From Candidatus Helarchaeota archaeon (GTDB lineage Archaea; Asgardarchaeota; Lokiarchaeia; Helarchaeales; RDOG01), in assembly GCA_019058315.1 (NCBI GenBank), contig JAHPZH010000005.1:96001-160000 (forward strand): a stretch of DNA of 64,000 bases, read 5' to 3'. The notes beneath the pieces are model-generated. The model did not search any database. It had not been told where the DNA came from and saw nothing but the letters and a program-made list of their open reading frames with translations. Positions 1 to 56,839 of this stretch are shown here, piece after piece. Both the position numbers and the translations under genes were made by a program. Every line of letters starts with the position of its first letter. Positions within the stretch are counted from its first letter, which is position 1.

Positions 1-2934
1 AAGAGATGTTTCTGGGAAATTGAATCGAACACTGACCATAGATATTGGGTTTACTGAATCAGTTAAAATTAAACCTAATTTTGCACCCGGCGTACTAGAA
101 CCCCCAAAGCATCTATGAACAACACTTGGACCGCTTGATTTGCCAGCGACTGAATAAAAACCATAACCTGAACCTGAACTTGTGGTAATACCAATTGTTC
201 GTTTATAATCCTTAGTGAAAGATCCTCCCCTTAACATCAGCGCTTCTTCTCCAATATAATATTCACGTGAATAATGTTCGACATCGGTCATAATTGACAT
301 ATATTTTGGATACCCTACTATAGTGGGAAGCACAGAACGAGGACCATCTTCTCCTGCAAAACCCGCATAACTAAAATTCGATCCTAATTCCAAACAGATG
401 GGGTTTCCTTTTGGATCTTTGTATACTTTCGGTTTTACCTTTTTGAGAGATTTGAATTTTATATCAATTTTTTGAATAAATTTTTGTATTTGCCTTTTAG
501 AATCACTCTTTATCAACATTTCATTAAGAACTGCTTTTATTTCGTTTGTAAGGGGAGAATCTTTTGTACAAATTGTATTAAAAATCCTTTCGCTAATATT
601 AATTAAACATTCATCTTCTTGTTCCTTTGTAATATGACCCTCTTTTGATAACTGATGAATATCTGTAACTATTTCTTGATACAAATCAATATTATTATCA
701 TCGATTTGGCTTATCTCATCTTCTGCAGCTATCATTAAGATGTTATTATCATTTACTAGAATCAAACTTTCAGAAATAATTTTTAAAATATTATAAATGA
801 GAGTTTTACTGTTTTTTTCTTTATTTTTTTCTGCAATTTCTTGAATAAGTTCAATTATTTTCCTCTTTACAAGCCTATGATTAACATCTTGTATCATCCC
901 AGCTTTCTTTGTAATTCTTAGAAATTCAAGCCCTGTACCAACTAACTTAGGATTGAGATAAATATAGTGAATTAGTGCATCTAATAGTGCATTAAAATAT
1001 GGTCCATATTCTTTTGTATCCCAACTCAATATTTCTGAATTATTTTTCTTGATAAATTCCTTTTTAAAAAATATTTCTAATGGAGTTTCAATTTTTCGTC
1101 CTAATTGGAGAACAGATGCATCAACTAACATAGCACCTAAGCAGCATGCTATAGCTTTATCATCTTGTAATATTTTAACTTGAAAATTAGCCTTATTACC
1201 GGGTTGATAAGTGCTTTTATCACTTTCAATATCAATTTTTAGCTCTTTTCTCTCAGGATTTACGTAAATCTTTCTTTCATTTTTTTCTAGGATACCATTT
1301 GATCTAAAAGCATATGTTATAACTTTTAAATTACCCCACATCTTTCTAGTGATTGGAATTTTAAAATCCGCCGTTCCCTCAGTTGCAAGCTTCACTGTTC
1401 TATAAATTATATTCTCCTTCTCGATATCGACATAGATAGGAATATTCTCCCTATCAACAACTGCATTTAAATGTAAAAAATCGTTAATATTTAAGCTAGG
1501 GGATTCTATGTTTGTATTAAGCCATATTTTTGGGTTTTCTTTTTCTCCTTCTTTCTGCTCTTTTTCTTCTTTTATTACTGCTTTTTCAACAGTCAGTCCT
1601 TTGCGGACTGTTTTGGATTCATCTAATAATTCCGATTCAATCATGATATTAATATCAAAATTCTTCTTTTTCTCTGTAGGATAATCAATTTCAAAAGTTA
1701 AGGGACATCTTCCTTCATTATCTGTTTTTGCTACTTTGAATTTTGCATGGTGTTTCAGCTCAGTATCATTTATCGAAGCTAAAACAAAACACTCGTTTAA
1801 TGGGACTTTTTTATTTTCTAGGGTTGGAACTTCTGTTTTAATTATTACTTCTGCTTGTTGACCTGGTTCAATACTTCTCGCCATATCTGTTGTTACGATC
1901 AAAGCTTGCTTTACTGTGCTAATTTTTATTTCCTTATTAGCTTTGCGTTTTAAACTGTCAGTAAGTTCAAATATAATTTTAGATTCTCCCTCTTTCATTT
2001 CAGGAACTTGGAACCTATAAATATATTCTCCTTTTTCATCTGTTTCCCCATAAGTTTGGAGAATTTGTTTATTTTCTGGTGATATAATTTCAATTTTAGC
2101 ATTGGCTTTTTTCACGGGTGCTCCGTAAAAATATTCGGACTTTAATTCGAGTCTAAATTCGTCCCCTATTTTTAGATATTCTGGTTCACATTTTACTTTC
2201 AATTCTATGTCTGGTGGTTGATAATTCTCGATTTTAATTGATTTTTCAGATTTAAAACCTTTAACCGAAACTTTAACTTTATAAACTCCTTCTATTGCCT
2301 CTTCAGCTATTGGAATTTGAAGTTCTCCTATCCCAAATTTAGAATCACATGAAATTTTTCTAATAAGTATCCTATTATTTTGTGGATCAGTTAATGTTAC
2401 TTTAATAGGCTCTTGACTTGGTTGATAAGTACTTCCTAACAGTTTCCAAAGGATAAAACGAATAAGTATCCTCTGTCCTGGCATGTAATAATCACGATCT
2501 GTAATCATATAGCATATATATTCTTCCTCTTTTCTGGTAAGATCCAACCTCAAAGTTTTTTCTTTTCCATCAATTTTAACCTTAATTTCATAAAATTTAT
2601 ATTCAGCATCAAATTCAAATTCCAATGAACCTAAATTATCTGTTAATCCCTTAAAAACAGTTTTATTGCCGTTGATCAACTTTACTTTACAATTAATGGG
2701 AAAAAAGTTCTGATCCATACAAATAATACGGCCAGAAATTTTCTCACCTTCTTCGAACTCCGAATTCATTTTAACAAAAATAAGTGGGGGTTCCCTTAAA
2801 TTCGAAATTTGACTGATCAGACTTTGAACTTTCTCAACATCTATTGAAGTTATTTGATTAAGAATATCCACATCAAGTTTATCTTTTTCTTTAATATTGA
2901 GGAGCCTTTTTAGTTTTTTACATGTTGTATCCAA
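1..2934 (-). CDS. Alpha-2-macroglobulin-family (MG-domain) protein, 3'-truncated by the window edge, with actin- and GTPase-derived peptides in the bait-region position
   Basis: Hand translation gives 978 stop-free codons from TTG at 2934 (SD-like AGGTGGT at 2947-2941) to base 1. A2M motifs occur in the expected order: MG2 ITDRDYYMPGQRILIR, ENYQPPDIEL, EYFYGAPV, SDKSTYQPG...LVDASVLQL and post-bait VRFNFPETSL. No N-terminal hydrophobic segment. Not in the supplied ORF track. Confidence 0.88.
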   Translation of the reverse strand, partial: MDTTCKKLKRLLNIKEKDKLDVDILNQITSIDVEKVQSLISQISNLREPPLIFVKMNSEFEEGEKISGRIICMDQNFFPINCKVKLINGNKTVFKGLTDNLGSLEFEFDAEYKFYEIKVKIDGKEKTLRLDLTRKEEEYICYMITDRDYYMPGQRILIRFILWKLLGSTYQPSQEPIKVTLTDPQNNRILIRKISCDSKFGIGELQIPIAEEAIEGVYKVKVSVKGFKSEKSIKIENYQPPDIELKVKCEPEYLKIGDEFRLELKSEYFYGAPVKKANAKIEIISPENKQILQTYGETDEKGEYIYRFQVPEMKEGESKIIFELTDSLKRKANKEIKISTVKQALIVTTDMARSIEPGQQAEVIIKTEVPTLENKKVPLNECFVLASINDTELKHHAKFKVAKTDNEGRCPLTFEIDYPTEKKKNFDINIMIESELLDESKTVRKGLTVEKAVIKEEKEQKEGEKENPKIWLNTNIESPSLNINDFLHLNAVVDRENIPIYVDIEKENIIYRTVKLATEGTADFKIPITRKMWGNLKVITYAFRSNGILEKNERKIYVNPERKELKIDIESDKSTYQPGNKANFQVKILQDDKAIACCLGAMLVDASVLQLGRKIETPLEIFFKKEFIKKNNSEILSWDTKEYGPYFNALLDALIHYIYLNPKLVGTGLEFLRITKKAGMIQDVNHRLVKRKIIELIQEIAEKNKEKNSKTLIYNILKIISESLILVNDNNILMIAAEDEISQIDDNNIDLYQEIVTDIHQLSKEGHITKEQEDECLINISERIFNTICTKDSPLTNEIKAVLNEMLIKSDSKRQIQKFIQKIDIKFKSLKKVKPKVYKDPKGNPICLELGSNFSYAGFAGEDGPRSVLPTIVGYPKYMSIMTDVEHYSREYYIGEEALMLRGGSFTKDYKRTIGITTSSGSGYGFYSVAGKSSGPSVVHRCFGGSSTPGAKLGLILTDSVNPISMVSVRFNFPETSL

Positions 2935-3166
2935 AAATAGACCACCTAAAATTATAATTCGATGTCTATAACGTAAAATATATTTTTAATTTTTCTAGCT
3001 AAAGCCCTTCTTTTATAGTTTTATTTGTAAGACCTTTATCATCGACAAAGTTCATAGTGTTGAAAAAAATTCATTCAGTTGATAATTTCCTAATTTGATT
3101 CAAATTAGAAAAAAAGAGCAAAAATATTTCAAATGAAATAAAAAATTAGAATACTAGAAGAAATAT

Positions 3167-56296: not shown

Positions 56297-56839
56297 TCAA
56301 ATTCCTTTATGTATTGATTTTTGCCAATATTCAAATGCAAGTTTAGCCAATTCATTAAAAGCCTCCTCCACACCTTGACCTTCTTTGGCTGATGTTTCAA
56401 TATAGGGACAAGGAACTTGGTCTGCAAAAGATTTTGCATCTTTTTCACGTATAGTCCTCATAATCTCCAGATCCACTTTATTTCCAATGAGAACTATGGG
56501 AATCCTCCCTGTAAAGCTCCAAAGATCCTTTATCCATTTAAGAATATTAGGACTGAATGTTGTATAACGAGTTAAATCAAAGACAACTAAAGCTCCTGAA
56601 GCTTCTTTATAAAATGCTTGGCGTATAAATTTAAATCTTTCTTGTCCTGCAATATCCCAAATGGAGAGAGTTATTTGATTCTCGCCATTATTGAGGGATA
56701 CATCCTTCACAAAGAGGTCACAACCTACAGTCATCTTATATTCCTTTTGAAAGACATCATTGACGAATCTTTTAATCATAGTGGTTTTTCCAACAGCTGC
56801 ATCCCCTATCAATAAAATTTTAAATTTATATCTTACCAT
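56297..56839 (-). CDS. Rab-like small GTPase
   Basis: FKILLIGDAAVGKTT, YKMTVGCD, IWDIAGQERF, GNKVDL, ETSAK; ATG at 56839; no C-terminal Cys. Confidence 0.93.
   Translation of the reverse strand: MVRYKFKILLIGDAAVGKTTMIKRFVNDVFQKEYKMTVGCDLFVKDVSLNNGENQITLSIWDIAGQERFKFIRQAFYKEASGALVVFDLTRYTTFSPNILKWIKDLWSFTGRIPIVLIGNKVDLEIMRTIREKDAKSFADQVPCPYIETSAKEGQGVEEAFNELAKLAFEYWQKSIHKGI

Follow-up and report, generated by a model that had tools for sequence, protein, structure and literature searches.

A split actin in the bait region of an Asgard archaeal alpha-2-macroglobulin that lacks an export signal: a candidate decoy trap

In the eukaryotic thioester proteins, which include A2M (alpha-2-macroglobulin) itself, CD109, A2ML1, TEP1, and complement C3, C4, and C5, activation by cleavage at the bait position and the accompanying thioester chemistry are established, and all of these proteins are secreted or located at the cell surface. 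Type I bacterial A2Ms are usually paired with PBP1c. Those of Escherichia coli (ECAM, also called YfhM) and Salmonella (SaA2M) are exported lipoproteins with a short and unstructured bait (PDB 5a42 and 4u48). Here, we describe an A2M-family gene from Candidatus Helarchaeota archaeon, an Asgard archaeon whose genome (NCBI GenBank assembly GCA_019058315.1; G000 in our set) comprises 5.8 Mb in 12 contigs. The codons for its N-terminal 978 amino acids (aa) lie on the minus strand at positions 1 to 2934 of a 64,000-nucleotide (nt) stretch of contig JAHPZH010000005.1 (C2:96001-160000), which we refer to as the window. A preliminary description of this DNA had recognized an apparently cytoplasmic A2M and had read its bait as a patchwork of the cell's own actin and small-GTPase peptides. 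Both ends of actin are indeed present in the bait. However, the larger actin piece belongs to a split actin as one of its two halves, with the other half encoded in the same operon, and the patchwork itself is confined to a tail that is limited to one subclade. We propose, with a probability of roughly 45%, that the protein is a cytoplasmic thioester trap that displays a split pseudo-actin as a decoy on its bait and is triggered by a cut in the D-loop region.

The A2M gene and the actin piece in its bait

The stop-free minus-strand frame with A2M MG motifs on which the preliminary description was based is open, translates as quoted there, and continues intact past base 1 of the window. The entire open reading frame (ORF) occupies C2:93982-98934 on the minus strand and encodes 1,650 aa. 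Its TTG start (window positions 2932-2934) is preceded by a ribosome-binding-like site, AGGTGG, located 8 to 13 nt upstream (2942..2947, minus strand). Within the window, Pfam profiles matched MG2 (1.3e-14; aa 142-224; 2263..2511, minus strand) and the A2M bait-region domain A2M_BRD (3.3e-11; aa 494-611; 1102..1455, minus strand), which is the first half of MG6 and ends in the strand LVDASVLQL. Canonical A2M sequence restarts at the post-bait motif MVSVRFNFPETSL(W) (1..39, minus strand), which carries the second half of MG6 into MG7. The C-terminal domains that were looked for beyond base 1 are present and in frame. Residues 979 to 1650, encoded at C2:93982-96000 (L003:9982-12000, minus strand), contain MG7, CUB, TED, and MG10, with Pfam matches to A2M/MG7 (1.2e-14; aa 976-1064), TED_complement (5.4e-28; aa 1172-1447), and a C-terminal bMG10 (3.1e-9). 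The thioester motif GCVEQ is found at aa 1184 of the TED domain, and a C[VT]EQ motif is kept in six of six close homologues. The protein is a full-length member of the A2M/thioester-containing family, with thioester chemistry predicted from the motif, and it is the only TED-domain protein in this genome.

An export signal is typical of characterized A2Ms, although this is a habit of the known members and not a structural criterion, and it is absent here. A signal peptide is impossible for this protein. Reading back from the TTG start, the frame is closed by a stop after 17 codons. Peak hydrophobicity in its first 70 aa is 0.55, compared to 1.8 to 3.0 in bacterial A2M relatives from the same search, which have obvious signal peptides. 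These results bear out the earlier remark that signal peptide and lipobox are missing, and no upstream start that would provide a signal peptide was found when one was sought. A sequence scan revealed no transmembrane segment or export signal in the A2M or in the other three operon proteins (two VWA proteins and a truncated actin, described below), and the close and distant relatives in the clade of this A2M all lack an export signal as well. Among the A2M representatives, we also observed that many (P0135, P0165, P0192, P0195, P0205, and others) start with a Cys-x-x-Cys, anti-sigma-factor-like N terminus rather than a signal peptide.

The A2M_BRD match ends at aa 611, the A2M/MG7 match starts at aa 976, and the phmmer match to human A2M begins at aa 968, aligned with chain residue 730 of the human protein. 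The intervening insert of 364 aa (aa 612-975) therefore occupies the bait position. It contains an all-alpha domain of about 190 aa (aa ~640-830; 445..1017, minus strand) that is kept in the family and was modelled with confidence (pLDDT, 80 to 95). This domain had only generic helical-repeat matches in structural searches (Z ≤ 8.9; mostly designed proteins) and no specific relative, so that no function could be read from them.

The helical domain is followed by a piece of actin. Residues 843 to 903 of the A2M (226..408, minus strand) correspond to actin residues 7 to 67, i.e., the three N-terminal strands of subdomain 1 together with subdomain 2 and its D-loop, and aa 844-901 match positions 5 to 55 of the 410-position Pfam Actin profile. 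The match for this piece is the genome's own actin (C5:296550-297689). The two are identical at 15 to 17 of 18 positions in the D-loop region (83 to 94%) and at 27 to 30 of 35 positions across residues 33 to 67, but at just 11 to 15 of 27 positions in the N-terminal strands, and the phosphate-1 motif has been lost from the bait piece (ELGSN versus DNGTG in the cell's own actin). What had been described as an actin N-terminal peptide is thus an N-terminal and D-loop piece derived from the cell's own actin and located at the canonical bait position. When modelled alone, the last ~130 aa of the insert were predicted with low confidence, including the actin piece (pLDDT, ~25).

Comparison of homologues for self-derived bait peptides showed that the actin piece is retained. 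Of the bait elements, only the core of the D-loop, GYPKYMSIMTDV (aa 874-885; 280..315, minus strand), was present in every D-loop-bearing member of the family that we examined (GYPKY.SIMTDV), and it survives in members of the clade that are only ~30% identical to this A2M in the C-terminal half. In this family, the D-loop is always carried on the A2M chain at the bait, is near-identical to that of real actin, and is followed by a flexible linker.

Resemblance of this kind could in principle arise from a chimeric assembly, from a pseudogene, or by chance, and the GC content does rise to 0.39 in positions 1 to 400 of the window, compared to ~0.30 across the next kilobases of the A2M gene. We regard an artifact as exceedingly improbable. 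The bait piece is not a misassembled copy of the actin gene, since DNA identity between the two is just 76% over 122 nt, and the frame of 1,650 codons is intact. A 72-kb contig assembled from the probable source run spans the whole stretch. In addition, positions 1-203, 217-433, and 389-589 are each represented, with few differences, in contigs of three other studies, and the last of these bridges the junction between the helical domain and the actin piece. The same architecture is also found in independent NCBI, JGI, ENA, and Logan assemblies. An artifact, including a chimera at the actin/A2M junctions, is effectively refuted.

The truncated actin and the split fold

The A2M gene is the first of four genes in a same-strand operon, followed by two VWA protein genes and a truncated actin gene with intergenic gaps of 16, 4, and 6 nt. 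The product of the truncated actin gene (L003:6962-7888, minus strand) is a 308-aa actin homologue that matches the Pfam Actin profile only at positions 65 to 408. Alignment with real actin places the start of this protein and of each of its four orthologues (5/5) at actin residue 68, with the sequence M-V-L-(K/R). The body of the protein is 39 to 48% identical to real actin, and its nucleotide motifs are lost (RLK-N for phosphate-2, where DSGDG is expected, and SG-LKI for adenosine, where SGG[ST]T is expected). The phosphate-1 (expected DNGSG), phosphate-2, and adenosine motifs of the split actin are degenerate in other lineages, too. Judged from its sequence, the split actin, with both halves taken together, has lost its ATP-binding motifs and is ATPase-dead. 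Elsewhere in the genome, we noted a second divergent actin-like gene (C5:149261-149443) that is 32% identical to the bait actin piece over 62 aa and is probably an actin-related paralogue.

In this genome, actin residue 67 is the last in the bait piece, and residue 68 is the first in the partner. We tabulated the break points of twelve systems, which fall into two designs. In the first, found in this subclade and in a Sigynarchaeota-labelled member, the bait runs to residue 60-67 and the partner starts from residue 63-68. In the second, found in six other lineages, the bait ends after SIMTDV(EHYT), at residue 49-53, while the actin-like part of the partner starts from residue 41-54, where a short Tyr-rich leader precedes REYY(I/V)G(E/D)EA. 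The two break points co-vary, with the partner supplying what the bait lacks, which argues that one fold is made from two polypeptides. This is comparative evidence, drawn from sequences and independent of any structure predictor, for a shared fold. The Tyr-rich leader (FSYY, YYY, or NYY; N-terminal 6 to 25 aa, preceding REYY) was seen in the early-break partners at L043, L044, L046, L047, and L050 and has no counterpart in real actin.

Structure prediction for the complex was compatible with such an assembly. With bait aa 838-965 (six-row alignment) and the partner (five-row alignment) as inputs, the complex reached an ipSAE of 0.89, compared to 0.00 for the best of three controls; 58 of 80 solved complexes attained that mark, as did 2 of 110 mismatched pairs. 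Contact agreement between runs was 75% or higher, with a partner pLDDT of 51 to 56. Residues 1 to 65 of the bait input took part in actin-like strand pairings, the tightest of which joined bait residues 8 to 12 with partner residues 39 to 44, a contact that we take to be the beta1/beta(103-107) pairing known from subdomain 1 of actin. Bait residues 42 to 54, which hold the greater part of the D-loop, lay outside the confident interface, as did the tail (66 to 128). Because the halves of a split gene may pass through likeness to solved actins, the score indicates compatibility and not binding.

If the proposed trap exists, its operation would be as follows. The bait would provide actin strands 1 to 3 and the D-loop, while the cotranscribed, N-truncated actin would provide the remainder from residue 68, and the two pieces are predicted to form a single, catalytically dead actin fold hanging on the A2M, an assembly that we infer to take place in vivo. 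This pseudo-actin would present a D-loop near-identical to that of real actin. A protease or another chain-severing agent that attacks the D-loop or the adjoining flexible tail would cut the A2M chain at its bait, and the cut would bring about a conformational change that exposes the thioester, so that the attacker would be captured covalently, as in characterized A2Ms. In the subclade studied here, the tail might present two more cytosolic targets as short peptides, the actin C terminus and a Rab-like switch I, with one or two TPR-VWA proteins joining as probable adaptors. The whole system would then guard the actin cytoskeleton by means of a decoy. The D-loop is the classic protease-sensitive element of actin, and pathogen proteases are known to cleave it specifically; for example, grimelysin cuts actin only between Gly42 and Val43 (PMC7311988). 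Furthermore, engineered A2M is reported to capture protease catalysts covalently (PMC9918453).

Several observations weigh against this proposal. The system is rare, being present in about 7 of 400 Asgard species genomes, and one member of the family (P0121, with a Heimdallarchaeota label) has no CxEQ motif. No protease or other attacker was identified, and none is encoded nearby. The complex score may stem from the model's memory of solved actins. Even if the D-loop were cut, the actin fold might hold both halves of the bait together, in which case the A2M would not be released. We know of no characterized A2M that works in the cytoplasm. The proposal also leaves the role of the VWA proteins unexplained. 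Finally, conservation of the D-loop and of the YxLPDG loop in subdomain 4 would be equally expected if the pseudo-actin bound real actin.

That last possibility amounts to an alternative explanation. The pseudo-actin has a native-like pointed-end face, to which the D-loop and the subdomain-4 loop contribute, whereas its barbed-end face is divergent, so that it would be expected to bind the barbed end of real actin filaments or monomers. By tethering or capping them in this way, it would place the A2M and the VWA proteins on the cytoskeleton for a structural, cross-linking, or regulatory role. Conservation of the partner peaks at two subdomain-4 segments, IVRDIKEKLCYVALD and SY.LPDG (0.72 to 0.85 identity versus 0.12 to 0.35 for segments of the barbed face), and the Y..P.G loop shows no variation, not even among partners with only 31 to 37% identity to real actin. 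An invariant D-loop is likewise what a real longitudinal actin contact would demand. However, the subdomain-4 segments may be conserved for folding, and docking leaves unexplained why the D-loop strand is always found within a thioester trap, at its bait, and not in the actin gene, why the complete A2M machinery has been retained together with its thioester, and why the tail carries further target-like peptides. We therefore consider docking unlikely. If it were true, an A2M tethered to actin by a pseudo-actin completed in trans would represent a new type of cytoskeletal accessory.

The bait tail, the VWA proteins, and neighboring genes

Between the actin piece and the post-bait motif lies a variable, Gly/Ser-rich tail (aa 904-965; 40..225, minus strand), which was modelled with low confidence alone and falls outside the predicted actin interface. 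It contains a copy of the actin C terminus, GPSVVHRCF (aa 935-943; 106..132, minus strand), that differs at one of nine positions from the end of the cell's own actin (GPSVIHRCF). Among 15,091 ORFs, these two were the sole matches with two or fewer mismatches, and degenerate copies occur in homologues P0004 and P0006. The actin C-terminal peptide reported in the preliminary description is thus genuine within this subclade.

The tail also contains a Rab/Ras switch-I-like peptide (aa 905-916; 187..222, minus strand) with the core FTKDYKRTIG. We scored it with a matrix built from 64 Ras-family proteins of the same genome (consensus, RFEEDYKPTIGVDF). It reached 10.7 bits (per-window P = 9e-6; tail-corrected P ~ 4.5e-4), compared to a median of ~22 bits for real GTPases, and two of five close homologues also passed (P0005, P = 0.004; P0008, P = 0.002). 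Because the test was chosen after the motif had been seen and real GTPases score ~22 bits, we count this match as moderate evidence only. The Rab switch I peptide of the preliminary description is therefore significant on a matrix of the cell's own GTPases while scoring well below them. Two other candidates were rejected. The match to a switch-II/YYRG region (KRYYRGG in P0005 and P0008) was too weak, with P ~ 0.01 on a matrix from only 12 sequences. A ubiquitin-like "LRGG" mimic, previously listed as a separate element, is explained by actin residues 64-67 (LRG) and the first linker Gly, and 4 of 6 homologues read LG(A/G)G at this position.

The tail peptides could be additional decoys in this subclade, with a Rab-type switch I and an actin C terminus widening the range of effectors that are sensed. 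The probabilities given above for the switch-I match are consistent with this, as are the near-exact copy of the actin C terminus that is unique in the proteome and the abundance of potential targets, with at least 96 Ras-family GTPase matches in the genome. On the other hand, the post hoc test and the gap to real GTPases reduce the force of the switch-I match, for which three of six close homologues are not significant. In addition, KRTIGITTSSGSG also aligns with the phosphate-2 segment of actin at ~8 of 13 positions (hand count) and could be a relic of actin. When the tail was aligned, with gaps, to the remainder of actin, the score was 82, compared to 52 ± 7 for shuffled sequences, with the C-terminal peptide contributing most; the tail may conceivably be what is left of a whole actin shrunk by deletions. 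Moreover, the patchwork of switch-I-like peptide and actin C terminus is limited to this subclade and varies among its members, while in divergent clades its place is taken by no more than a short Gly/Pro linker. On balance, additional decoys in the tail seem possible but doubtful. With respect to the Ras-family matches, many are fused to extra domains in open frames of 300 to 570 aa, and one lies inside the window (C2:152339-152821; window 56339-56821, minus strand).

The two genes directly after the A2M gene encode paralogous TPR-VWA proteins of 342 and 345 aa with Pfam VWA matches of 8e-11 and 9e-12. In the model (mean pLDDT, 78), six TPR-like helices at the N terminus lead into a VWA fold, and the sequence contains a MIDAS-type motif (DSTGS) along with GGGD and a conserved D..PPH. 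Foldseek returned integrin I-domains, von Willebrand factor A domains, and TFIIH p44, all of which are generic VWA folds with nothing specific among them. Fragments of complement C3 are bound by the VWA domains found in factor B and in the CR3 I-domain. This raises another alternative, in which a dedicated cellular protease would cut the actin-like bait, the thioester would tag another target, and the TPR-VWA proteins would bind the activated form. Three features point in this direction. First, among solved structures, the best phmmer matches to aa 954-1640 (partly before window base 1) were eukaryotic A2M (6tav), CD109, A2ML1, and insect TEP1 (E = 4e-34 to 4e-27), whereas bacterial A2Ms scored lower (~1e-16); these are similarity scores and imply no ancestry. 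Second, VWA genes with the MIDAS-like DSTGS are conserved beside the A2M in this subclade. Third, the helical insert is located at the bait position, presumably the site of the C3 anaphylatoxin domain. Yet the cassette encodes no protease domain, several divergent members have no VWA protein, and the VWA fold matches are generic. We consider C3-like activation quite unlikely.

None of the four operon proteins (the A2M, the two VWA proteins, and the truncated actin) matched a defense protein catalogued in PADLOC, and NCBIfam offered no informative family for any of them. Source annotations of the proteins read only hypothetical, "MG2 domain-containing," or "alpha-2-macroglobulin family." On the opposite strand beside the cassette (L003:2928-6956; C2:86928-90956) are genes for a PAS-rich histidine kinase, a response regulator with a C-terminal domain of unassigned type, and an acidic 95-aa protein. 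A similar set, consisting of a response regulator, a 96-aa protein, and a PAS kinase, adjoins the cassette in L037/L038.

Distribution and comparison with known systems

Five close homologues were recovered from NCBI, JGI, and Logan. They are 47 to 51% identical to this A2M in the bait region and 59 to 65% identical in the C-terminal half. Four of the five could be placed on a contig, and each belongs to a cassette with A2M, VWA, and truncated actin genes; some of these cassettes have the same flanks as in this genome, while the flanks of others are unrelated. The pairing of an A2M with an N-truncated actin was found at no fewer than 11 further loci, with Asgard source labels of several lineages and unrelated flanking genes. 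Most of these loci also carry a VWA gene, and gene order varies. In the more distant members with accessible neighboring genes, an actin-like gene adjoins the A2M gene, in some cases upstream of it, and VWA may be present or absent. Among the proteins listed by a search with a C-terminal-half profile, at least nine distinct lineages have G(Y/F)P(K/R)Y.SIMTDV located 23 to 97 residues before the post-bait motif. Source labels of the D-loop-bearing A2Ms include Lokiarchaeota, Promethearchaeota, Heimdallarchaeota, Sigynarchaeota, Hodarchaeota, Freyarchaeota, and one "Bathyarchaeota" bin.

The same profile detected some A2M in 45 of the 400 Asgard species genomes, and the roughly seven that have this clade together with an actin-like bait piece represent at least five GTDB families. 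A profile of the whole bait gave full-length matches in only two of the 400 genomes, because divergent members match just its actin columns; the C-terminal-half profile therefore provides the better count. Some individual cases deviate. The high-scoring A2M of G010 (C155) has neither the D-loop nor the CxEQ motif, while the A2M of G047 has an actin-like stretch, with no partner actin detected in the 16 kb of sequence covered. In P0121, the D-loop segment is kept (aa ~641-700) and the preceding actin strands are absent, possibly reflecting a thioester-less variant of the system. P0113 is an A2M fragment with two transmembrane-like hydrophobic segments in its bait (aa ~360-420; maximum KD, 3.2) and no actin piece. 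We also observed a second and commoner type of A2M in ~37 of the 400 genomes (G057-G078, G130-G143, G179-G229, and others), with ORFs of ~1950 to 2080 aa that match only profile positions 4 to 547 at 200 to 260 bits; this type accounts for most of the other A2M matches in the set.

Should the decoy trap prove real, it would be, to our knowledge, the first intracellular trap of the A2M type and the first natural actin divided between two proteins. It would also be the first sign of attack on the Asgard actin cytoskeleton strong enough to select for a dedicated guard, and such attack would bear on the ecology of the lineage that gave rise to eukaryotes. Thioester immunity, VWA adaptors, and target mimicry, which are eukaryote-style themes, would be linked in a prokaryote. 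A testable question follows, namely, which viral, bacterial, or cellular protease cuts the D-loop of Lokiactin. More tentatively, Asgard archaea may have a cytoplasmic, thioester-based innate-immune trap that guards actin by means of a split pseudo-actin decoy, to which some lineages add GTPase-switch mimics and VWA adaptors. Such a trap would amount to effector-triggered, decoy-type immunity assembled from thioester, VWA, and actin parts, and it might relate to the origin of the eukaryotic thioester proteins. The natural variation in break point (residue ~49 or ~67) could also guide the engineering of split actins.

Full-text literature searches found no paper that describes this A2M/split-actin architecture, and the searches that touched on the subject found no natural split actin, of which we also know none. 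The protein resembles ECAM and SaA2M in being monomer-sized with multiple MG domains, in having its bait inside MG6, and in combining a TED that contains a CxEQ thioester with a bacterial-type MG10. Unlike them, it has no signal peptide, its bait holds the 364-aa insert, and it is accompanied by truncated actin and VWA partners. Its nearest bacterial homologues are ~24 to 27% identical in the C-terminal half. Eukaryotic thioester proteins share the position of the bait and, by prediction, the chemistry, but differ from this signal-less A2M in location, and we know of none with a cytoskeletal protein as bait or with a partner that completes a fold in trans. Together, the bait and its partner span the actin fold (Pfam positions 5-55 and 65-408) with a D-loop near-identical to that of the cell's own actin. 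In contrast to Lokiactin and actin-related proteins, the fold is split over two polypeptides, the nucleotide motifs are lost, and one half resides inside the bait of another protein. The plant PBS1/RPS5 pair, the integrated decoys of NLR proteins, and mammalian NLRP1 and CARD8 share the proposed logic, in which an immune protein carries a copy of a host target or cleavage site and responds when an attacker acts on it. However, they belong to unrelated families and have an NLR signalling output, whereas the output here would be covalent capture by the thioester. Thus, in its predicted location, its structured and host-derived bait, and its fold-completing partner in trans, the system appears to depart from all characterized members of the A2M/TEP family.

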